Of a DNA stretch of 64,000 nucleotides, positions 1 to 29,708 are shown one piece after another. The first letter of the stretch is position 1. Every line of letters starts with the position of its first letter. The position numbers and the translations under genes were made by a program. Source of the DNA: an uncultured Pseudomonadota bacterium (lineage in GTDB: Bacteria > Pseudomonadota > Alphaproteobacteria > UBA9219); assembly GCA_903919315.1 (NCBI GenBank), contig CAIXHP010000032.1, positions 44,977-108,976 on the forward strand, read 5' to 3'. The notes below the pieces were generated by a model. The model searched no databases. It saw nothing but the letters and a program-made list of their open reading frames with translations, and was not told the origin of the DNA.

Positions 1-1062
1 AGGAATGCCGTTTTTGTTGCAGGTGATGCCCGCGTTTTCCAGACTCTTGCTGCTCGCCTTGCCTGTGAGATTTTTCGGGCGCAAATCGACCAGCATCAAA
101 TGAGTGTCCGTGCCGCCCGACACAATGTCGCAACCGTGTGACTTGAGCGTCGCGGCCAAAGCCTGCGCATTGGCCACCACATTCTGCGCGTAAAGCTTGA
201 AGTCAGGTCGCAGCGCCTCGCCCAACATGACCGCCTTGGCGGCGATCACATGCATCAAGGGGCCGCCCTGCAAGCCGGGGAAAACGGCGGAGTTGATTTT
301 CTTGCCGATGTCGAGATCGTTGGACAACACCATGCCGCCGCGCGGGCCGCGCAAGGTCTTGTGCGTCGTCGTCGTCACCACATGCGCATGCGGCAAAGGA
401 CTGGGGTGAACGCCGCCCGCCACCAGACCGGCAAAGTGCGCCATATCCACCATCAGATACGCGCCGACCTCGTCCGCGATTTTACGGAACGCCGCAAAGT
501 CGATGACGCGCGGATAGGCGGAGCCACCCGCGATGATCAACTTCGGCTTATGTTCACGCGCCAACCGCGCCACTTCGTCCATGTCGATCCGGTGATCGTC
601 CGCCCTGACGCCATAGGGAATGGCCTTAAACCACTTCCCCGACATATTCACCGAAGCGCCATGCGTCAAATGCCCGCCCGCCGCCAACGACATGCCCAAA
701 ATCGTGTCGCCGGGTTGCAGCAGCGCCAAAAAAACCGCCTGATTGGCCTGTGAACCCGAATTCGGCTGCACATTGGCAAAGGCGCATTCAAACAACTTGC
801 ACGCGCGGGCGATGGCGATGTTCTCCGCGATGTCCACATCCTCGCAGCCGCCGTAATAGCGTCGGCCCGGATACCCCTCAGCGTATTTGTTGGTGAGGAC
901 GGAGCCTTGCGCTTCCAACACCGCGCGCGAGACGATGTTTTCCGAAGCGATCAACTCGATGTTGTCCTGCTCCCGCGCCAACTCGCCGGTGATGGAACGA
1001 TACAACTCAGGATCAGCTTCGGCGACGGAAGCGGTGAAAAACGAGTTTTGTGGTGATGACAT
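1..1062 (-). CDS. glyA: Serine hydroxymethyltransferase (runs off the window at the 3' end)
   Basis: Manual translation: MSSPQNSFF...[50 protein letters not shown]; AGAGG RBS upstream of the ATG at 1062. Confidence 0.97.
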
Positions 1063-4781: not shown

Positions 4782-6803
4782 TCAGGCGGGCGTCGTTTGC
4801 AAGGGAGCGGGGATGGAGGCGGCACGCCGTAGTGCCAAAGCAAAGCCCCGCGGCGGCCTTGCCATCGGCTGTGGCTGAGATGCCATTGTGAACCGAACCG
4901 TAGCAGCGTGAGGCAGTGGCCTATTCAGTGCCTGGCGATAAGCATCATCGGTCAACCTCTGGCCATTGATTTCCGCAGCTTCAACGCCGGACCAAAAATC
5001 AATGCGAAGAGATCGGCCAAAGTCGCCAAGCGTCGGCGCACGCCCGTCAGTCTTTTCCAAGCGATGCAAGACACCGTCCGCCCCGCCCACCACGATATAA
5101 GGCCACTCCTGATGCTCCGGCAACTCGCGCCCATTCAAACGGGCCCCCATCCACATTTGCAAATGGGCCATCATGTTATGGCGCAGTTTGCCGCGCGTCG
5201 GCCCCGTAGTATCCGGATGCGGTCTTGTGTCCGTAAGGTCCTTACCCGCAGCCCGCATTGCCTTGTGCACGCCATGGTGCGCCTCGCCATGCCCATTCGC
5301 CTCGTGCATCGATTGGGTCACCATCTGAACTTCGACCTCAAGTCCTTGTTCAGTCCCAAGCTGCTTGATAATCAGCCCGTCATGTATCGCGGCATAACCA
5401 TTGGGTTTCGGCTTCGCGACATAGTCCTTGTGCCGGCGCGGCATAGGTTCAAAAGCGTGGATCAGCGCGTTCCTAAGCCCCTTCAATCGCGCATGATTCT
5501 GTCTAGCATTGATGTGCCCCTTCAATGTAAAACTATCGGGCAAAACAAAACGAAACGCATAGATGTCGTAAATGCCCGTGATTCTGGCGTCAGGCGACAA
5601 CCGATAAACCGGATAACACTTTTCATCGAAATCCTTCTGCAGCTGTCGCATGGCATCATTATACGCGCCCGCGTTAAGCTCGCCTCTGTCCAATTGTCCC
5701 GCCAAAGCCTCGCGCGCGGAATCAAAGGCTTTTTCGTCATCCTCTCTCGGCATAACCAGAAGCTTTTGTTGAATCGACCAAGGGGCTTTGACCCGACCAG
5801 TCACCGAAGCGATGGAATCTGTGCCGAACCCTTGCCGTTCGAGTCCTGCCAAGATTTTTTCCTGAATAACGGCAAGATTCGCTTGCGCACGCATGGCATC
5901 AAGCTGCACCCGAATAGAGCGCTCCGCGTCCGGATCGAGTTGATGCAGCAACAGATGCTGCATTTCCCGCTGAATGGGTCGGAGGGTTTCCATTTCACCC
6001 ACCAGCGGCAAATACATTTCCTGAATATGAAGCCTCAGCAGCGTTCGCGCAGCCTCGTCCCCTCGCCCTTTTCCCATAACCCGGAGCTTTTCCAAAGCAT
6101 CCGCGATCTTGATGAGCGCAACACGCGCCGGATTTCTGGTGCCGAGCACCAAATCCTGTCCCAACGCGTATTGCGTCTTGTTAAATAAAATGTCCCTTCG
6201 GCGGAGCATGCCTTGAGCGTCAGGAATACGGCTGGTAATCGGCTGGCGGGTGATGCGGCTAACCTCCTCGACCATCGCCACAATCGGCGGGTGCGCGGCA
6301 AAGGTTTCCTGCACACGGCTGATGGGAATGATGTCATAGGCCACATATTCCTGCAGCAACGCGGCTATGACAGAAATGACTCGTTGCGCTTTTTGCGTTG
6401 ACGCGCTGGACTGTGTTTTTCGACCGCCGCGTGACGGTTCTGCCACCGCCGCATCAGGCTGGACGCGATCAATATTCATGGCGGCCACCGTCATGGCCAC
6501 ACGGAGGTCGCTCTCGAAAGTTCGACCGTAGTCCAGTTCATGAGACTCAAGAGCCCGCGCCAATTTTCGAGGATGGTCGCTCTCTTCGATCAGATTGACA
6601 GCCTGCGTCACCAAGCCAACATCGCCGTCGATGCCGCGAATCAGATCATAAAGATCTTGCTTGCGAGGATGGAGCTTCTGACCAACGTCAATGACGAAAC
6701 TGCCGATTCGACGCGCCAAAGCCGCCTGACCGTCATCGCCGCCAGAAGGAAGCGTCAACACATCATAAGCTCTGGTCGTTGACCTGCGTCGAGGCATAAC
6801 CAC
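4782..6803 (-). CDS. Divergent RelA/SpoT homolog with degenerate HD, SYNTH and TGS-like domains, no ZFD/ACT
   Basis: GRVKAPWSIQQK, DIYAFR, KDYVAKPKPNGYAAIH, EVQMVT; AALLQEYV in place of ALLHDTV; LIKIADALEKLR in place of LVKLADRLHNMR. Confidence 0.85.
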   Translation of the reverse strand: MVMPRRRSTTRAYDVLTLPSGGDDGQAALARRIGSFVIDVGQKLHPRKQDLYDLIRGIDGDVGLVTQAVNLIEESDHPRKLARALESHELDYGRTFESDLRVAMTVAAMNIDRVQPDAAVAEPSRGGRKTQSSASTQKAQRVISVIAALLQEYVAYDIIPISRVQETFAAHPPIVAMVEEVSRITRQPITSRIPDAQGMLRRRDILFNKTQYALGQDLVLGTRNPARVALIKIADALEKLRVMGKGRGDEAARTLLRLHIQEMYLPLVGEMETLRPIQREMQHLLLHQLDPDAERSIRVQLDAMRAQANLAVIQEKILAGLERQGFGTDSIASVTGRVKAPWSIQQKLLVMPREDDEKAFDSAREALAGQLDRGELNAGAYNDAMRQLQKDFDEKCYPVYRLSPDARITGIYDIYAFRFVLPDSFTLKGHINARQNHARLKGLRNALIHAFEPMPRRHKDYVAKPKPNGYAAIHDGLIIKQLGTEQGLEVEVQMVTQSMHEANGHGEAHHGVHKAMRAAGKDLTDTRPHPDTTGPTRGKLRHNMMAHLQMWMGARLNGRELPEHQEWPYIVVGGADGVLHRLEKTDGRAPTLGDFGRSLRIDFWSGVEAAEINGQRLTDDAYRQALNRPLPHAATVRFTMASQPQPMARPPRGFALALRRAASIPAPLQTTPA

Positions 6804-6847
6804 AAACCCTTACCGCAATAGACCCAATTCCAAAAATACGGCTTCGC

Positions 6848-7255
6848 TTAATCCTTCACGTCAGCGTCTTCAAAGCTGGTCACAAGGCCGCTTTGGTCAG
6901 CATCGGATTCGACTTCTTCGGCATCCAAATCTTCGTCGCCTTCTTCCTCGCCGCCGAGATCGGCGTTGATCCAGCTCTGCTGTTCGCCCGCCATCAGTTC
7001 AACGACTTCTTCTTCCGGTTGGTCGGGTTCAACGCGCTTCTGCAAACCCTTGACCAAGGTTTCATGCAGGCTCGCCAAATCCAGACGCTCCTCGGCGATC
7101 TCGCGCAAGGCCACGACCGGGTTTTTGTCACGATCACGCTCCAGCTTCAGCTCGGCACCGGATGCCAACGCGCGCGCGCGATGCGCGGCCAGCATCACCA
7201 ACTCAAACCGATTGGGAATTTGCAGAACACAGTCTTCAACAGTCACGCGCGCCAT
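6848..7255 (-). CDS. rpoZ: RNA polymerase omega subunit
   Basis: [34 protein letters not shown] with acidic tail. Confidence 0.97.
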
Positions 7256-7632
7256 TTCCAAAAACCCCTGCCGATGAGAAGAAAATTCGCCTGCTTATCC
7301 GCATTACCTCTGATTGGAAGCAAATTACCCCAAAAAGATATGAACAACGAAACAAACCAGCTTACCGCGTCTATACTAACCGTTTTTGTGAGTGCATGTA
7401 AAGCGTCGCTGCGTTATAATCATGCCGAAAGGTGGGGAGAATTTGTCAATCCCTGCCTTGCGGCTTAATTTTTCTTGGACTAGTTTTGTTTGTGGCCCTG
7501 ATTCGGAGGCATTCTATATTCTCGGTTGCCTTTTTTTGGCAGCCTCGGTAGAATGAAAGCCTCGCCTTTGAGCCTTGCGAGTCAGGCCGTTAAGCATGGT
7601 TAATATCGAGCTTCACACTGTATGAGGGTAAG

Positions 7633-8265
7633 ATGATATTCTATAAAGAAGAGCGGATGGCGATGTTCATCGACGGGGCCAATCTGTACGCCGCCGCACG
7701 GGGGCTCGGTTTTGACATCGATTACAAGCGGCTTTTGGAACTCTTCGCCGGACGTGGTCGTCTGGTGCGGGCGTTCTATTACACCGCCCTCATCGAAAAC
7801 GAAGAATACTCGCCGATCCGGCCGTTGGTGGATTGGCTGGACTACAACGGCTACGCCATGGTCACCAAGCCGACCAAGGAATTCACGGATGCCTTTGGCC
7901 GCCGCAAGATCAAGGGCAATATGGACATCGAGCTGGCCATCGATGTCATGGAGATGTGCGAACACGTCGACCACATCATGATCTTCTCCGGCGACGGCGA
8001 TTTCCGTCGTCTGGTCGAAGCGGTGCAACGCAAGGGTGTGCGCGTCAGCGTCGCCAGCACGATGCGCTCCTCGCCCCCCATGGTGGCAGACGAACTGCGC
8101 CGTCAGGCCGACAACTTCATCGAACTGCAAGACCTGATGCCCCACATCGCGCGCGCGCGCGATCCGAACCAGCAACAGCAGCAGCCGGCAGGGAATCAAC
8201 CCAACATGAAGGAAGTCGCCCAAAGCCTAGCGGCAACCCAAGAAGCCATCCAAGAAGTCGCTTAA
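7633..8265 (+). CDS. NYN/LabA-DUF88 domain protein
   Basis: FIDGANLY, KGNMDIELAID, FSGDGDF, LRRQADNF; Gln-rich tail. Confidence 0.92.
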   Translation: MIFYKEERMAMFIDGANLYAAARGLGFDIDYKRLLELFAGRGRLVRAFYYTALIENEEYSPIRPLVDWLDYNGYAMVTKPTKEFTDAFGRRKIKGNMDIELAIDVMEMCEHVDHIMIFSGDGDFRRLVEAVQRKGVRVSVASTMRSSPPMVADELRRQADNFIELQDLMPHIARARDPNQQQQQPAGNQPNMKEVAQSLAATQEAIQEVA

Positions 8266-8282
8266 CCCGACCCACAAAAACC

Positions 8283-8319
8283 AAACGGCGAGCAACACCC
8301 CGTTGCTCGCCGTTTTTTT
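8283..8319. terminator. Intrinsic terminator, probably bidirectional
   Basis: AAACGGCGAGCAAC-N5-GTTGCTCGCCGTTT plus T tract, between convergent genes. Confidence 0.85.
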
Positions 8320-8339: not shown

Positions 8340-9722
8340 TCAGGACGCATCCCCGCCTTTCGCCCGCTTCTGCCGCGCAGTCTTCAAATGATCCGCCACC
8401 AGAAAGGCCATTTCGAGGGCTTGCGAGGCGTTCAACCTTGGGTCGCAGTGGGTGTCGTAGCGGTCGGCGAGGGTTAGCTCCGTCACCGCCGAGCTGCCGC
8501 CCGTGCATTCCGTCACGTCGCGCCCCGTCATCTCCAGATGAATGCCGCCGGGCCACACGCCTTCGGCATCGCACACGTCAAAGAACGCGCGCGCCTCAGA
8601 CAGGACGCGGTTAAAGTCGCGCGTCTTATAGCCCGTGGCGGACATCTGCGTGTTGCCGTGCATAGGATCGGAACACCACACCACCGAACGCCCGGCTTGC
8701 TTCACCGCCCGCAGCAACGGCGGCAAGCACGACGCGACTTTGTCCGCCCCCATGCGTGTCACGAGCGTCAAACGCCCCGGCTCGTTGTCGGGATTCAACG
8801 CGTCGATCAAACGCAGCAGATCATCCGTCGCCAGCGACGGGCCGCATTTGAGGCCAAGCGGATTTTTCACGCCGCGCAAAAACTCGACATGCGCGCCGTC
8901 CGGCTCCCGCGTGCGGTCGCCGATCCACAGCATGTGCGCGGATACGTCGTACCAATCGCCGGTCGTGCTATCCACACGCGTCAAAGCTTCTTCATAGGGC
9001 AGCAACAAAGCTTCGTGCGACGTGAAAAGATCCGTCTCGCGCAACGCCGCCGAAGTGTCGCCGTTGATCCCGCAAGCGTCCATAAACTCCAACGCCTCGC
9101 CGATACGCCGCGCCAGATCTTGGTAGCGTTCGCCTTGCAAACTGCGCTCGACGAATCCCAAATTCCAGCGATGCACCTGATGCAAATCGGCATAGCCGCC
9201 CTGCGCAAAGGCGCGGAGCAGATTGAGCGTCGCGGCGGACTGGTTGTAAACCGAAATCATGCGCTCAGGGTCCGGCTGCCGCGCCTCCGACGTGAAATCC
9301 AGCCCGTTGATGATGTCACCGCGATAGCTGGGCAGCGTCACGCCGTCGCGCGTCTCGGAGTCGTCCGAGCGCGGCTTGGCGAACTGTCCCGCCATGCGCC
9401 CCACCTTGACCACCGGAGTCGCGCCGCCATAGGTCAACACCACCGCGATTTGCAAGATGACGCGAAAAGTATCGCGGATATTGTTGGCGCTGAACTCGGC
9501 GAAGCTTTCCGCGCAATCGCCGCCCTGAAACAGGAACGCGTTGCCCGCCGCGACATTCGCCAGCGCCCGCTTCAAGCGCCGCGCCTCGCCCGCGAACACC
9601 AGCGGCGGCAAACGCGCTAACCGCGCCTCGGCTTCCTGCAAACGAACGGCATCACTATATACAGGCTGCTGCTTCGCGGTTTTGGCGCGCCAGCTGTCGG
9701 GAGTCCAATTATGCTGTGTCAT
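8340..9722 (-). CDS. Class II DAHP synthase
   Basis: [51 protein letters not shown]. Confidence 0.96.
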
Positions 9723-9814
9723 GACAAATAACTTTCATCAGTGTCGCGGCGTTTCCTGCCGACGGTTGAAAAAATTTGGATGTGTGGGGAAGAGTGAGCG
9801 CGCTGTTTCCGGTA

Positions 9815-9904
9815 TTACCGGAACCAAAAAAAGCGCGCAAAGCCCCAACCACGCCCGACACAGGGGCGGCCAACACGCGAGGGGTTTGTCGCTTCAGTTC
9901 TCAT
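9815..9904 (-). CDS. Putative aromatic amino acid leader peptide, 29 aa: MRTEATNPSRVGRPCVGRGWGFARFFWFR
   Basis: ATG at 9904 to TAA at 9815; 2 Trp and 4 Phe in the last 10 codons; ends 92 nt upstream of the DAHP synthase start; overlaps a hairpin. Confidence 0.7.
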   Translation of the reverse strand: MRTEATNPSRVGRPCVGRGWGFARFFWFR

Positions 9905-9967
9905 GCCACGACCCTACCAAGGCGAAAGCCGAAAATCAAGCCGTTCTCCCGCACCGCAACATGCCCA

Positions 9968-11119
9968 TCAGTCCGGATAGCACACATAATACACCCAGCA
10001 CGAGGTGCAGGCGGCATACTCGTCCTCGACCAGCCACTTCCCCGACAGATCAATGGGCTTCACATCTTTATAGCCGCAACGGCGAAGCTGCGCGATCTGC
10101 TGTTCAATCGTGATGTAATACTGCGCAATGCGGAAACCATGGGTGCCGTCGTTCACGATGGCGTATTCTTCACAGGTGTGTTCGAACTGCGCGGCCTTCG
10201 CCTTGTTGGCTTCCTCCTCGGCGTTGCGCGGCTGGCGATCGACGGTCTTGAGGTAATTTCGGTTGTGGGACGAAAACACCATCACCCCATCGGGCGCGAC
10301 GACGCGGCGGAACTGCCTCCAAACGCTCAAGCGCTCCTCATGCAAAAGACTGTCGATGCCGTTGAAGCTAAAAATCAGAAAATCGACCGAGGCATCGGCG
10401 AAACGCGACATATCCCGCGCATCGCAAATCTGGAATTTGTATTCGGGAAATTTGACGGCGCAATTGCGCACCATCGCCTCGGAATAATCCACGCCGAGAT
10501 ACTGGCGGCTCAGTTTCGTCAACGACGGCGTCAACCGACCGGCACCAACGCCGATTTCCAAAATGCGCTTGCCCATGATGCTGGGTCCCATCTTCTCAAA
10601 CAAGCTGGCTTCCACAGGATACACGCCTTCCAAAACCGCATACTCCTGTGCGATCGTCGCGTCGCTCCAAAACGAACGATTGGTGGCATAAAAGCCCTCC
10701 GAAGCCGTCGCCGCCGTATCGTCTTGTCCCAGAAACGGTTCAGGATTCGCCAACGCTGCGTGAACGCGCGTGAGAACCTCCTGCCCCTCGGCGGTCAAAC
10801 CCACATGCACAGCCGCCTGCTCCATTACGCTCAAAGCATCGCTGGCACGGCCCGCCCCCAACAGCCTGTTCGCATACGACCAATAAAAAACGGCTTGGTT
10901 TGGCGCGACCTCGATGGCCTTGGCCATGAACGACAACCCCATAGCGGCGCGCCCCGTCTCGCAACACAGAACGCCGAGATTGTGATTGGCTTCGGGATGA
11001 TCGGGCAGCGCCTGCAGAATGGCGCGATACAGTTGATCGGCCTCCCCCAACCGTCGTCCGCGATGACTATCGACGGCGCGCAACAGGGCTTCGTCGGCGG
11101 TGAGTTGCTCTTCGGCCAT
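9968..11119 (-). CDS. TPR-repeat plus class I SAM-dependent methyltransferase fusion
   Basis: TPR (PDHPEANHNLGVL); ILEIGVGAGR, GVDYSEAMV, CDARD; AGGAG RBS before ATG 11119. Confidence 0.85.
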   Translation of the reverse strand: MAEEQLTADEALLRAVDSHRGRRLGEADQLYRAILQALPDHPEANHNLGVLCCETGRAAMGLSFMAKAIEVAPNQAVFYWSYANRLLGAGRASDALSVMEQAAVHVGLTAEGQEVLTRVHAALANPEPFLGQDDTAATASEGFYATNRSFWSDATIAQEYAVLEGVYPVEASLFEKMGPSIMGKRILEIGVGAGRLTPSLTKLSRQYLGVDYSEAMVRNCAVKFPEYKFQICDARDMSRFADASVDFLIFSFNGIDSLLHEERLSVWRQFRRVVAPDGVMVFSSHNRNYLKTVDRQPRNAEEEANKAKAAQFEHTCEEYAIVNDGTHGFRIAQYYITIEQQIAQLRRCGYKDVKPIDLSGKWLVEDEYAACTSCWVYYVCYPD

Positions 11120-11446
11120 GACACACATCTCCTGAACGTTGCAGTCCCGGTTATCCGGACTGAAAATAGAGCCACGCCGTTTGCCGCAATGCAGCATCGC
11201 ATGACGCAGTGCGAAGAAAGGTAGCGATAACCGGAACATCAATCAAGATAAGCGTTTTCTTGCATTTTTCTCATGATGAAAGTGCGTTCTGCACTTGACC
11301 TTTGGTGCGCGAATCGGGCCTACTGACCTCGCCGCAGCCCACTGTTTTTTTGCCCGGACTGATTCCTCGCAAACGACGCAGATGGGTATGTTTGAACCGT
11401 TCAAACCCAGTCTCCTAATCGGCATCAGATGGAAGGAAAAAGAAAC

Positions 11447-13705
11447 ATGACCGCCGTAATCAAAATTCCGGCCCCCGAAAAGTCATGGCGTGGTTTCGTT
11501 GGCGACGCATGGAAAATGTGCGTCGACGTGCGCGACTTCATTCAAAACAATTACACGCCCTATGACGGCGACGAAGCCTTTTTGGCCGGAGCGACAGCGC
11601 GCACCAAAAAGATGTGGGAAAAACTCGCGGCCCCGCTGAAAGAAGAACGCGCGAAAGGCGTCCTCGACATTTCCACCGACAAACCCGCGTCGATCACGGC
11701 GCATGATGCCGGTTACATCGACCAAGACAACGAAGTCATCGTCGGCCTGCAAACCGACGCGCCGCTGAAACGCGCCATCATGCCGAACGGCGGTCTGCGC
11801 ATGGTCGAAGCGGGCCTTGAAGCCTATGGCTACGACATGGATCCTGCGGTCAAGGAAACGTGGACAAAGCACAGAAAATCGCACAATCAAGGCGTGTTTG
11901 ACGTCTACAGCCCCGAAATCGTCGCGGCGCGCAAATCCGGCATCATCACCGGCCTGCCCGATGCCTATGGCCGTGGCCGCATCATCGGCGACTATCGCCG
12001 CGTCGCGCTTTACGGCACCGACTTTCTGCGTCAGGAAAAACAACGCTCCTATCGCGAACTGGAAGACCAGGTCTTCGACGACAAGGTCATCCGTCTGCGC
12101 GAAGAAATGTCAGAGCAATGGCGCGCGCTCGACGAACTGAGACAGATGGCCGCGAAATACGGCTTCGACATCAGCCGCCCCGCCGAGACCGCGAAAGAAG
12201 CCATTCAGTGGACGTATTTCGCCTATCTCGCCGCCGTCAAGGAACAGAACGGCGCGGCCATGTCGATCGGCCGCATCTCGACCTTCCTCGACATCTACAT
12301 CGAACGCGATCTGAAGGAAGGCATCCTGACCGAAGAAAAAGTTCAGGAGATGATCGACGATATGGTCATCAAGCTCCGCATCGTCCGCTTCCTGCGCACG
12401 CCCGAATACGACACGCTGTTCTCCGGCGACCCGACATGGGTGACGGAATCCATCGGCGGCATCGGCACGGACGGACGCTCGATGGTCACCAAGAGCAGCT
12501 TCCGCTTCCTGCACACGCTCTACAACCTCGGCCCGGCCCCCGAACCGAACCTGACGGTTCTGTGGAGCCCGCAGTTGCCACGCGCGTTCAAGGATTTCTG
12601 CGCCAAGGTATCGATCGACACCAGCGCGATCCAATACGAAAACGACGACGCGATGCGCCCGCATTGGGGCGACGATTACGGCATCGCCTGTTGCGTGTCA
12701 GCCATGCGCATCGGCAAGCAGATGCAGTTTTTTGGCGCGCGCGCCAATCTGGCCAAAGCGCTCCTCTACGCCATCAACGGCGGTGTCGACGAAAAGACGG
12801 GCAAAAAGGTCGCCGACGGTTTCGAGCCGATCAAGTCCGACGTTTTGACCTACGACGAAGTGATGCCGAAGTTCGGTCTGATGATGGATTGGCTCGCCAA
12901 GACCTACGTCAAGGCGCTCAACTGCATCCACTACATGCACGACAAATACGCCTACGAACGTATCGAAATGGCGCTGCACGACCGCGACATCCTGCGCACC
13001 ATGGCCTGTGGCATCGCGGGCTTGTCGGTGGCGGCGGACTCACTCTCGGCCATCAAGCACGCCAAGGTCAAAGTCGTCCGCAACGAGCAAGGTCTGGCAA
13101 CCGACTATGTGATCGAAGGCGACTATCCGGCCTATGGCAACAACGACGACCGGGCCGACGACATCGCGGTCTGGCTGGCCTCGAGCTTCATGGACAAGAT
13201 CAAGGCGCAACCCCACTTCTACCGCGACGCGATGCCGACGCAATCCGTCCTGACGATCACATCGAACGTCGTGTACGGGAAAAAGACCGGCAACACGCCG
13301 GACGGTCGCCGCGAAGGTGCGCCGTTCGCGCCGGGTGCCAACCCCATGAACGGACGTGATGTAAAGGGCTTTGTCGCGGCGGGCGCTTCCGTGGCGAAAA
13401 TCCCCTACAGCTGCTCGCTCGACGGCATCAGCTGGACGGCATCCGCAACGCCCGACACGCTGGGTCATACGGGCAACGAGCGCAAACGGAATCTGGCCAA
13501 CTGCCTCGACGGCTTCGCGGCGGCAGGCGGGTTTCATGTCAACGTCAACGTCTTCAACCGCGACACGCTGCTCGACGCGATGGAGCATCCGGAACTGTAT
13601 CCGCAACTGACGGTACGCGTCTCCGGCTACGCCGTGAACTTCGTGCGCCTGACCCGCGAACAGCAAATGGATGTGATCAGCCGCACTTTCCATCAAGCGA
13701 TGTAA
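11447..13705 (+). CDS. pflB: Pyruvate formate-lyase
   Basis: [23 protein letters not shown] active-site Cys pair, C-terminal RVSGY glycyl-radical motif. Confidence 0.98.
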
Positions 13706-13720
13706 GGCCACAGCTCATCC

Positions 13721-14521
13721 ATGTCTCAGAAATCCGATAAGAATCCTCCTCGTACCGCCTCGCGGCAGCACGAGGAGGACGATCTTGTCGGCTATCTCCA
13801 TTCGGTCGAAACCGGCGCGGCGGTGGACGGGCCGGGCATGCGCTTTGTGTTCTTTATGAACGGTTGCATGTTCCGCTGCCTGTACTGCCACAACCCGGAC
13901 ACATGGAAAATTCACGGCGGCCGCAAAATCACGCTCAATGAAGCGCTCGCCGAAGTCAAACCCTACAAGGATTTCCTGAAATTCGCGGGCGGCGTGACCG
14001 TCTCAGGTGGCGAACCGCTCGTCCAAGCGCCATTTGTTGGAGCCTTGCTGAAAAGGATCAAGGCCGACTTCGGCCTGCACACCGCGCTGGACACGCAAGG
14101 CTTCCTCCACGCCTCCGTCAGCGACGAATGGTTCGACGCGGTCGATCTCGTCCTGCTCGACATCAAACACTCCGACCCTGAGGTCTACCGCAAACTGACC
14201 GGCCAAGCGCTCCAACCGACGCTCGATTTCGCGCAACGTTTGGCGCGGCTGAACAAAAAAGTCTGGCTGCGTTATGTTTTGGTTCCTGGCCTAACCGACG
14301 GCGACGACGACATCCTGCGCCTCGCCGACTTCGCGGCCAGCCTCGGCACGACCGTCGAGCGCGTCGACGTTCTGCCTTTCCACCAGTTGGGCTCCTTCAA
14401 GTGGAAGGAACTGGGCATCCCCTACCAACTCGACCACACGCCGACACCCACGCCCGAATCCGTCACCCACGCCCGCAGCCTCTTCGCCTCGCGCGGCCTC
14501 AACCTGCAAGCCCAGGCGTAA
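13721..14521 (+). CDS. pflA: PFL-activating enzyme (radical SAM)
   Basis: VDGPGMRFVFF, CMFRCLYCHNPD (CxxxCxxC), GGVTVSGGEP. Confidence 0.97.
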   Translation: MSQKSDKNPPRTASRQHEEDDLVGYLHSVETGAAVDGPGMRFVFFMNGCMFRCLYCHNPDTWKIHGGRKITLNEALAEVKPYKDFLKFAGGVTVSGGEPLVQAPFVGALLKRIKADFGLHTALDTQGFLHASVSDEWFDAVDLVLLDIKHSDPEVYRKLTGQALQPTLDFAQRLARLNKKVWLRYVLVPGLTDGDDDILRLADFAASLGTTVERVDVLPFHQLGSFKWKELGIPYQLDHTPTPTPESVTHARSLFASRGLNLQAQA

Positions 14522-27690: not shown

Positions 27691-29708
27691 ACGACCACCC
27701 ACAGCAAAAAGAGCAAGGTAAAGAAGGAATAGCAGAGATAGACCCGAAGGTTGCCGCCCTGAATGCGCGCCGTCCGCTCGGCCGTCTTGTGAATGATCGT
27801 CGCGACAGGCAAATAACACTTGAGCCAGATCCAGTCATTCACCTGCAAGGAGTAATGCGGCCCCCTGTCCGGCTGCGCGGGCTTGACCCGTTCCGAGACA
27901 TGCCAGGCGAACGAAAAGACGCGGCGGATCGGCATGGCAAAGGACGACGTCGTGTACTGCATGCGCGGCGACAAAGGCCCGAACCCGCAATCCCACGGAA
28001 TCGAAATGCGCGTACGGTTGCTGCGCCGCAAAGGATGGAGCAACAGATACGCCACCGTCCAGCTCAGCAGCAAACCGATGAGAACGGCGGGCGCACCGTA
28101 CGAAGCGGTCTTCTCGCTGATCGGAGCCAGCCACAGCCATGTGCTGCTTTCGATTCCCGCCATACCCTCGCCCAAAAACTTCTGGGGAATGACGTTGAGA
28201 GCCGTCGCCGTCCACGTCGACATCAGACCGAAACCGAGGCAAAGAACAGCCAGAACGACTTGGGAAACCTGCATGCCAAAGGGAACCTCGCGGGCTTCCT
28301 CGATTTGCTTGCTGCGCGGCAGCCCCAAAAAGACAACGCCGTAGACTTTGACAAAACAGGCAATCGCGAGCGCGCCGGTCAGGGCCAGCATCGCCGCCGT
28401 GATCGGAATCACCGCGCCCAGAATGCCGCCGTGCAAAGCCGTAGCCTGCAACGCGGCCTGAAAAGTCAGCCACTCCGACACAAAACCGTTGAAGGGCGGG
28501 AGAGCGCAAATACTGACGCAGCCGACCAAAAAGCAAGCGGCGGTCACCGGCATCTTTTTGATAAGCCCGCCCATTTGATCCATGTCGTGCTGACGACTCT
28601 GTTCCAGAACCGCGCCCGCGCCAAAGAAGAGCAGACTCTTGAACAGCGCGTGGTTCAAGCAGTGATAAAGCGCCGCGACAAGCGCCACGGCGGCAATCGC
28701 CGGATGCCCCGTCGCCGCAAAGATCATCGAAAGGCCAAGACCAATGTAGATGATCCCCAGATTTTCAACGCTGTGATAGGCCAACAGACGCTTCAGATCA
28801 TGCTGCATCAGGGCGTACAACACGCCCATGAGCGCCGAAAACGCCCCCACCAGCAGAACCAGAACGCCCCACTGCCACTGAATCCCGCCCAAAAGGTCGT
28901 ACACAAAGCGAATAAAGCCATAAACGGCGACCTTCAGCATCACGCCCGACATCATGGCCGAAATATGCGAAGGCGCGACCGGATGCGCCTGCGGCAGCCA
29001 GACGTGCAACGGCACGACACCGGCCTTCAAGCCGAAACCGACAAAGGCCAACAGGAAAGCAATGGTCGCCCACGTCGAATTCAGCTTGGCATCCGCCATA
29101 GCCGCGAAACTGAAGCCATCGCCAAATCCGGCCAACACGCCATAGCCGAGCAAAATAAAGGCGCCGCCGACAACGGCCATCAACAGGTAAACGAAGGCAG
29201 CGCTTCGGTTCTCGGCGCGGTCATGCTGGTAGGCGACGAGGAAATAACTCGCGACCGACATGAGTTCCCAAGCGATCATAAACGAGAAGGCATCGGCGGA
29301 CAGCAGCACAAGGTACATGCCGCTCACGAACAACCCCGTAAAGAACGTCAACGTCGCCACGGGATGCAACCCGTCCTCGACATGGCGGCGAATATAGGTC
29401 GGGCCATAGAACGAAGCCGCGATCGTGATCAACCCGACAACCGCGAGGAAAAAGCCGGACAATGCGTCAAGATGCAGAATGACGTGCAGCCAGGGAAGCC
29501 CAATGGGCAAAACGACCTCGTCGATCTGATTCGACAAGAGCGCCGTCACGCCCGACCAAACAGCGGCCACGCCTGACGCGCCCAGCAGCAAAAAGGAGAG
29601 CCGAACCATAAGGCGCGGTTGCTTTGCGAGAACCAAAGCCACAAGCGAAGACAGGAGGGTCGCAAGAACCGCCAGCTGAGCTACCGTTAAAGACATGCTA
29701 GAATCCAT
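27687..29708 (-). CDS. hyfB: HyfB-like antiporter-type membrane subunit
   Basis: WELMS, PLHVWLPQAHPVAPS, KRLLAYHSVEN, LPPFNGFVSEW. Confidence 0.92.
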   Translation of the reverse strand: MDSSMSLTVAQLAVLATLLSSLVALVLAKQPRLMVRLSFLLLGASGVAAVWSGVTALLSNQIDEVVLPIGLPWLHVILHLDALSGFFLAVVGLITIAASFYGPTYIRRHVEDGLHPVATLTFFTGLFVSGMYLVLLSADAFSFMIAWELMSVASYFLVAYQHDRAENRSAAFVYLLMAVVGGAFILLGYGVLAGFGDGFSFAAMADAKLNSTWATIAFLLAFVGFGLKAGVVPLHVWLPQAHPVAPSHISAMMSGVMLKVAVYGFIRFVYDLLGGIQWQWGVLVLLVGAFSALMGVLYALMQHDLKRLLAYHSVENLGIIYIGLGLSMIFAATGHPAIAAVALVAALYHCLNHALFKSLLFFGAGAVLEQSRQHDMDQMGGLIKKMPVTAACFLVGCVSICALPPFNGFVSEWLTFQAALQATALHGGILGAVIPITAAMLALTGALAIACFVKVYGVVFLGLPRSKQIEEAREVPFGMQVSQVVLAVLCLGFGLMSTWTATALNVIPQKFLGEGMAGIESSTWLWLAPISEKTASYGAPAVLIGLLLSWTVAYLLLHPLRRSNRTRISIPWDCGFGPLSPRMQYTTSSFAMPIRRVFSFAWHVSERVKPAQPDRGPHYSLQVNDWIWLKCYLPVATIIHKTAERTARIQGGNLRVYLCYSFFTLLFLLWVVV

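Follow-up and report, generated by a model that had tools for sequence, protein, structure and literature searches.

Genes around the DAHP synthase locus

The window, that is, the whole stretch of 64,000 nt that was analysed in this study, carries on its minus strand a gene for a class II DAHP synthase, which is located downstream of a TPR/methyltransferase gene transcribed in the same direction (Table 1). The class of the enzyme had been proposed in an earlier, sequence-only reading of this DNA and was confirmed by a match to the Pfam family DAHP_synth_2. DAHP synthase is the entry step of Trp, Phe, and Tyr synthesis, and in well-studied Proteobacteria it is known to be subject to feedback inhibition and to repression by regulators that include TyrR and TrpR.

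A gene for a NYN-domain protein (7633-8265) converges on the DAHP synthase gene, and a perfect intrinsic terminator sits between the two. Because this terminator ends the DAHP synthase transcript, the gene is monocistronic. At the other end of the transcript, no terminator was found between the upstream gene and the leader described below; therefore, read-through transcripts into the leader are possible. Farther away, the region 4782-7261 (minus strand) contains rpoZ (RNA_pol_Rpb6), followed by a gene whose product is RelA/SpoT-like and divergent, matching HD and RelA_SpoT weakly, and the region 11429-14521 (plus strand) contains a pyruvate formate-lyase gene followed by a radical-SAM gene, presumably coding for its activating enzyme.

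Table 1. Genes and candidate regulatory features of the DAHP synthase locus, with positions in the window. L001 is the closest relative in the comparison set (see text).
Feature	Position	Strand	Remarks
TPR/methyltransferase gene	11242-9968	-	Upstream of and co-directional with the DAHP synthase gene; 245-nt spacer between the two
-35-like hexamer TTGATT	9934-9939	-	Equivalent in L001: TTGATA (423-428)
-10-like hexamer TAGGGT	9911-9916	-	17-nt spacer to the -35-like hexamer; ends 6 nt before the uORF ATG
Leader ORF, 29 codons	9815-9904	-	ATG to TAA; TAA at 9817-9815
Candidate regulatory codon block W20-F28	9821-9847	-	TGG, TTT, TTT, TTT, TGG, TTC; all six aromatic in L001
Single codons of the block	W20 9847-9845; F22 9841-9839; F25 9832-9830; F26 9829-9827; W27 9826-9824; F28 9823-9821	-	
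Extended hairpin	9778-9856	-	Window only; codons 17-21 pair with part of the C-rich tract (CCCCACAC-type sequence)
Core hairpin	9798-9838	-	5' arm formed by codons 23-28 (including F25-F28); stop codon in the loop
G-free, C-rich tract, 35 nt	9764-9798	-	Candidate Rho loading site
AAATTTTTT	9769-9777	-	Candidate non-canonical terminator or pause, directly after the extended hairpin; absent in L001
Small GC hairpin	9745-9764	-	Precedes the DAHP synthase start by about 20-40 nt; -8.1 kcal/mol, z -0.9, alone not significant
Weak Shine-Dalgarno-like GAAAG	9732-9736	-	9 nt before the DAHP synthase ATG
Class II DAHP synthase gene, 460 aa	8340-9722	-	Pfam PF01474 (DAHP_synth_2), E 8.8e-212
Perfect bidirectional intrinsic terminator	8283-8315	.	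Ends the DAHP synthase transcript

A short ORF rich in aromatic codons

The spacer upstream of the DAHP synthase gene contains a short ORF (9904-9815) that encodes the 29-aa peptide MRTEATNPSRVGRPCVGRGWGFARFFWFR and ends 92 nt before the DAHP synthase start (-182 to -92). Translation and the positions of the codons confirmed the claim that 6 of its last 10 codons specify Trp or Phe (4 Phe and 2 Trp), and a codon count agreed with the further claim that Tyr codons are absent from the window's ORF (n = 0). Leader-peptide attenuators are characterised by a short ORF with codons for the end product, adjoining a biosynthetic gene; ORF 9904-9815 was found to have this arrangement.

When the 245-nt spacer was subjected to dinucleotide shuffling and forward sORFs of 8 aa or more were counted, a sORF with at least 6 W/F/Y in 10 residues was obtained in 86 of 20,000 shuffles. 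In the whole window, both strands included, 2 of 968 sORFs (8-60 aa) reached 6 aromatics in 10. The other high scorer (28808-28921) sits within ORFs of about 600-690 aa and was rejected as an alternative-frame artefact; thus, ORF 9904-9815 is the only intergenic one of the 968 sORFs to reach 6 in 10. Among the 120 intergenic ATG sORFs of the window, a search for other leader-like sORFs with runs of a single amino acid gave nothing convincing.

Two TTT codons and the T of a TGG codon form a run of seven T residues (T7) at 9826-9832 (minus strand), which is preceded by a weak hairpin (9854-9835) and is not kept in the closest relative. Runs of this type are prone to ribosomal or transcriptional slippage.

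Conservation of the ORF in the closest relative

For comparison, 80 loci were collected by a genome scan with the DAHP synthase as the query, giving a set of 81 together with the window. The closest relative, L001, is an alphaproteobacterial MAG contig, the DAHP synthase of which is 76% identical to that of the window; this was the best value of the 80, all others being 73% or lower. In a quick maximum-likelihood tree of the 81 sequences, the two enzymes were sisters (SH-aLRT 96) and formed a small and deep clade, the members of which are 0.65 changes per site apart.

L001 also has a uORF of 29 codons, starting with ATG and ending with TAA, at -184 to -94 from the DAHP synthase start (peptide MDSRSNIKHIAQIAIPGGAFAYGYFYWFR). 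In an ungapped alignment with the window's ORF, 19 of 57 nt were identical over codons 1-19, as were 2 of the 19 aa, which is near-random. Over codons 20-30, the identity was 20 of 33 nt. All six positions that are aromatic in the window (20, 22, 25, 26, 27, and 28) were aromatic in L001, with an extra one at position 24, and the end of the peptide, WFR followed by TAA, was the same in both. The aromatic codons of L001 comprise 3 Tyr, 3 Phe, and 1 Trp, with W to F and F to Y interchanges relative to the window. The score of L001 (7 W/F/Y in 10) was reached in 3 of 20,000 shuffles.

In a leader peptide gene, the regulatory codons and the position of the ORF are kept while the rest drifts, and this was the pattern observed in one relative, L001. 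The reading of ORF 9904-9815 as a leader peptide gene, as proposed earlier, has thereby received strong comparative support from a uORF with identical length, near-identical offset, and the same aromatic register, the rest of the peptide having diverged. The accompanying proposal of dual Trp and Phe sensing was too narrow and specific to the window's lineage. Since L001 carries Tyr, Phe, and Trp codons at the same positions, the conserved property is that of being an aromatic codon. In addition, the gene upstream in L001 is divergent (3-344, minus strand) and that in the window is co-directional, indicating that the uORF travels with the DAHP synthase gene, not with the upstream gene.

A chance ORF without function, present in both loci by shared ancestry, would be in keeping with its occurrence in just two sequences, and an open frame of 29 codons is not rare in itself. 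Such an origin is extremely improbable, given that the start, the stop, the length, and six aromatic positions were kept against 19 of 57 nt in the remaining codons, and that the shuffle rates were as low as 0.4% (window) and 0.015% (L001). As judged from the sequences of the two loci, ORF 9904-9815 is likely to be a ribosome-mediated aromatic sensor of some kind.

Survey of the upstream regions of other loci

As much as 400 nt of the sequence preceding each DAHP synthase start was taken, and the sORFs in it were scored by the highest number of W/F/Y in any 10 residues. Scores of at least 6 were obtained for 4 of the 319 forward sORFs, those of L001 (7), the window (6), L055 (6), and L051 (6), and the maximum in the reverse-strand control was 5 among 351 sORFs. 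The element described above was present in 2 of the 81 upstream regions (window and L001). Similarly, nhmmer searches of the window and all loci with a leader profile and a 12-nt stop-codon motif matched only the window and L001. The check that had been suggested earlier, a search for conserved W/F-rich uORFs upstream of orthologous genes, was thus positive for L001, and the element was absent from the other 79 loci.

Inspection by eye of the near relatives L002-L006, L012, L068, L020, and L021 showed no aromatic uORF; they include L002, which is the next branch in the DAHP synthase tree. In the region L002:2320-2440, a 13-aa sORF (one Trp codon) is followed by C/A-rich, G-poor sequence and by a GC hairpin in front of the DAHP synthase gene, an arrangement loosely similar to that of the window with no aromatic block.

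Several sORFs of Marinomonas (L051, L036, and L041; scores of 3-6), located about 250-140 nt upstream of the DAHP synthase gene, were rejected as leaders. They are artefacts because they are out-of-frame readings of a 79-aa ORF (MVPFKT...) that is conserved upstream; this ORF is intact in L036 and is also found in the Marinomonas loci L035, L025, and L040. This case is a warning for uORF scans that are blind to upstream coding genes. The sORFs of L070 and L063 with at least 5 W/F/Y in 10 have TTG starts and lie in AT-rich DNA.

In a Thalassospira MAG (L055:2230-2420; about -267 to -84), there is a 60-aa ORF with a YFWWF run and 6 aromatics in 10. This ORF could be another aromatic leader, independent of that in the window, with no clear promoter or Shine-Dalgarno sequence and no relative to compare. 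Six Rhodospirillales-type loci (L004, L005, L006, L012, L021, and L068) have a GTATAG/GTATAC -10-like motif and a uORF-free 5' region. The motif precedes the DAHP synthase start by about 175 nt in L005 and by about 50-80 nt in the other five. In these relatives, a plain promoter seems to drive DAHP synthase expression.

Promoter-like sites and start of the leader

The promoter-like site of the window, TTGATT-17-TAGGGT, had 7 of 12 matches, with the -10-like hexamer being weak. The equivalent site of L001, TTGATA-17-TATATT (-10 at 446-451), had 10 of 12 and ended 7 nt before the uORF ATG. No promoter-like candidate was found between the uORF and the DAHP synthase gene in the window or in L001. 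The worry that the transcription start might lie downstream of the uORF is thus weakened, because the only promoter-like sites have their ends 6-7 nt ahead of the uORF ATG. No Shine-Dalgarno sequence precedes the uORF of L001. Given how close the promoter-like sites are to the ATG, the leader ORF is probably leaderless or near-leaderless. The DAHP synthase gene itself is preceded by an AAAG-type ribosome-binding motif common to the window and L001.

RNA folds around the stop codon

The core hairpin (9838-9798) had a folding energy of -21.4 kcal/mol (z -3.8), and none of 200 shuffles folded as well. Its inner part can be drawn as a 6-bp stem closing a 5-nt loop or in a shifted 8-bp register, both inside an outer 7-bp GC stem, and the inner stem (9823-9807) is a perfect DNA palindrome. 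The hairpin described at this position in the sequence-only reading is therefore real, but the 1-nt loop assigned to it is sterically impossible. Trp and Phe codons had been placed in its 5' arm; this holds for F25-F28, whereas W20 and F22 are included only in an extended form. The extended hairpin (9856-9778; -34.5 kcal/mol, z -3.8 to -4.1, 0 of 200 shuffles) contains all six aromatic codons in its 5' arm. It is not conserved, as region 515-600 of L001 gave a z of -0.5.

A smaller stop-codon hairpin was found in L001 at 530-565 (-8.8 kcal/mol, z -3.4, 0 of 200 shuffles). The loop-closing pair is G:C in the window and C:G in L001, one side being a synonymous change of an Arg codon and the other being non-coding, which amounts to one compensatory change. 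Since only 2 of the 81 upstream regions carry the element, covariation support consists of this single pair change.

Several explanations other than a starvation sensor are conceivable for these features: the ORF could encode a small hydrophobic protein or a TnaC-like arrest peptide responding to a free ligand at the stop codon, palindrome 9823-9807 could be an operator for a protein, or the hairpin could stabilise the mRNA. The WFR-stop end that is conserved, together with the hairpin surrounding the stop codon, would also suit an arrest peptide; with the N-terminal 19 residues unconstrained (2 of 19 identical) and W, F, and Y interchanging freely, codon sensing fits better than a folded or tunnel-binding peptide. 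The perfect palindrome would be suitable for an operator, but the compensatory swap alters a half-site, which suits RNA pairing. The peptide had no match in Pfam. As a group, these explanations are considered very unlikely.

At the same offset as the small GC hairpin of the window (9745-9764), L001 has a stronger GC hairpin (602-621; -13.4 kcal/mol, z -2.7), which was the only significant one of the two. The spacer folded as a whole was unremarkable (z +0.52). Perfect complementarity over 7 nt was observed between 9856-9862 and 9714-9720 (minus strand), connecting the middle of the uORF with the DAHP synthase start region, and this pairing is part of the MFE fold. As a regulatory pairing, the match of 9862-9856 was rejected, being absent in L001.

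G-free tract and search for a terminator

The C-rich, G-poor tract noticed earlier after the hairpin was found to be a run of 35 nt without G (9798-9764), the longest such run in the 64 kb, both strands considered. The C/G ratio at the tract is about 2 over 78 nt, and a ratio of at least 1.8 occurs in just 0.7% of minus-strand windows. In L001, the longest G-free run of the locus (568-592) also lies right after the hairpin, inside a 37-nt stretch with a single G, where C/G is again about 2 and rises to 2.5. Attenuators in which Rho acts depending on a uORF have C-rich, G-poor, unstructured RNA by the uORF end, and the tract agrees with them in composition. Folding was also modelled with 30 nt of the RNA masked as the footprint of a ribosome located at the stop codon or at each of the aromatic codons. 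The tract was predicted to be mostly unpaired in every modelled ribosome state; thus, no RNA switch gating Rho is visible. Rho, one of the two outputs offered in the sequence-only reading, is favoured because the conserved G-free, C-rich tract by the uORF end matches the geometry of uORF-dependent Rho attenuators; as the main output of the sensor it is put forward tentatively, at less than even odds.

No canonical hairpin-plus-U terminator after the uORF was reported by a terminator scan, in accordance with the earlier observation that a classical terminator is absent beyond the hairpin. What the scan flagged was the weak, GU-rich hairpin 9854-9835 with the T7 run from the Phe codons behind it, which is non-canonical; this candidate within the uORF was rejected, since it is absent in L001. 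Constrained folds showed no pairing of the freed 3' arm common to the window and L001 that would give a mutually exclusive 2:3 antiterminator and 3:4 terminator. Without a conserved alternative of this kind, the classical four-segment attenuator fails its defining tests. Searches with all 4227 Rfam models gave no match at E up to 10 in the region 9000-10600 and none at the gathering score in the whole window. The leader families in Rfam include Trp_leader and Phe_leader.

The same sensor might have an intrinsic output. The extended hairpin together with AAATTTTTT would then be a terminator or a hairpin-stabilised pause, formed when codons 17-28 are free of ribosomes, and no antiterminator would be needed because a stalled ribosome blocks the extended hairpin directly. 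The stability of this hairpin, the six aromatic codons in its 5' arm, and the U6 run that begins 3 nt beyond its base (A3U6) are in favour of such an output. The structure is non-canonical, with three A residues between stem and U run, and was unreported by the scan; a ribosome paused at the stop codon would also block it, giving poor discrimination between stalled and terminating ribosomes. Since L001 lacks both the extended hairpin and the U run, an intrinsic output cannot be the shared mechanism, and it is considered unlikely.

Translational control had also been suggested in the sequence-only reading. In translational attenuation, a stalled ribosome would remodel the leader and free the DAHP synthase gene's ribosome-binding site, for which the leaderless-looking geometry and the lack of a terminator would be suitable; such a mechanism is described for leaderless Cys sORFs of mycobacteria in the accessible part of 10.1101/834739. 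In the masking models, the predicted accessibility of the ribosome-binding site was nearly unchanged, the unpaired probability under ribosome masks being 0.36-0.45 versus 0.37 in the window and 0.55-0.59 versus 0.49 in L001. There is also no conserved anti-Shine-Dalgarno pairing, as the 7-bp match mentioned above is confined to the window. Translational control thus found no support in these models and appears quite unlikely.

Proposed mechanism

Based on the features of the two loci, we propose that the leader peptide gene would report the charging of aromatic tRNAs and thereby set the amount of transcript that reaches the class II DAHP synthase gene. For this reading as a whole, a sensor combined with premature termination, we estimate a probability of roughly 0.6. 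Transcription would start at or next to the uORF ATG from the site 9939-9911, and the leader would be translated without a 5' untranslated region. With plentiful Trp and Phe, and in L001 also Tyr, the ribosome would reach the TAA in the hairpin loop and depart. Once it is gone, the hairpin would re-form and the naked G-free, C-rich spacer would be exposed. The transcript would then be truncated before or early in the DAHP synthase gene, with Rho loading on 9798-9764 as the most likely agent; in the window genome, the extended hairpin and A3U6 may contribute intrinsic termination or pausing.

Under a shortage of charged tRNA-Trp or tRNA-Phe, the ribosome would stall on codons 20-28, where it would keep the 5' arm of the hairpin open and stand at the edge of the spacer. 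Termination would be hindered as at tnaC, speFL, and cruR, and expression of DAHP synthase would go up. Two features of the window count against this scheme. With an assumed footprint of +/-15 nt, the edge of a ribosome stalled at F28 would be roughly 10 nt short of the G-free run, and the extended hairpin formed in the ribosome-free state pairs part of the C-rich tract, which goes against the simplest Rho logic. In its most specific form, in which a leaderless ORF of 29 codons would pool the charging of all three aromatic tRNAs and gate Rho loading on the G-free tract, with no terminator/antiterminator switch, the scheme is possible but doubtful.

A conserved leader of mixed aromatic codons would mean that the pathway's common entry step has recruited ribosome-based sensing, with the codons of several end products in one sensor. 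In this layout, the putative regulatory codons finish one codon ahead of the stop codon, which lies in a hairpin loop, and a G-free spacer follows, with no terminator. Such an arrangement would provide a compact natural test case for a stalled ribosome controlling the completion of a transcript without a four-segment RNA switch and could serve in engineering as a part responsive to aromatic amino acids.

Comparison with known systems

In trpL of E. coli, a hairpin has the regulatory codons in its 5' arm and the stop codon in its loop, and the leader 9904-9815 matches this layout. The trpL and pheL leaders of Proteobacteria, including trpL of Sinorhizobium trpE(G), are likewise short ORFs with codons for the end product. 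This is different from the present locus in four respects: here there is no 2:3 and 3:4 alternative with a U tract, the amino acids are mixed, the ORF is probably leaderless, and no Rfam model matches.

The aroF gene of C. glutamicum presumably codes for a class I enzyme. It is preceded by aroR, a leader with the motif Phe-Tyr-Phe (accessible part of PMC11802643). As described there (Neshat et al. 2014), aroR-aroF likewise has a leader with aromatic codons before a DAHP synthase gene, and stalling raises expression. That system is actinobacterial and is described in the same part of the article as transcription attenuation of an operon, whereas the present locus is alphaproteobacterial and monocistronic and has no canonical terminator. 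Compared with the Phe-Tyr-Phe of aroR (PMC11802643), the two loci have six to seven aromatic codons including Trp.

In tnaC, speFL, and cruR, a ribosome held at the end of the uORF shields the Rut site, and the uORF end likewise abuts a C-rich stretch (available sections of PMC12360218). According to these sections, what they detect at the stop codon, by way of the nascent peptide, is a free ligand, unlike the present leader, where the putative signal would be uncharged tRNA at sense codons before the stop.

Leaderless leader peptides without U-tract terminators are described for leuL1, metL, and thrL of Streptomyces (PMC8079986, in part). Such actinobacterial leaders, including the mycobacterial Cys sORFs, resemble the present one in being leaderless and rich in cognate codons, often with no U-tract terminator, as far as the accessible parts of PMC8079986 and 10.1101/834739 describe them. 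They differ in phylum and in the amino acids, and the unmasking of the ribosome-binding site described for mycobacteria is without support here.

Among the best matches listed in searches of the open-access full-text literature, no report of a leader peptide before a DAHP synthase gene was found for Proteobacteria, and aroF, aroG, aroH, and aroA do not occur in Naville and Gautheret 2010 (PMC2965389). Among these matches, leader-peptide control of DAHP synthase was found only for aroR of Corynebacterium (PMC11802643, accessible part). The sensing principle is thus a familiar one, and what is not textbook is the target gene in this phylum, the mixture of aromatic codons, the probable leaderless start, and an output without a terminator. 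If the reading with Rho gating is true, the locus would represent a starvation-sensing counterpart of tnaC and the first case in Proteobacteria in which a leader peptide controls the shikimate entry enzyme.
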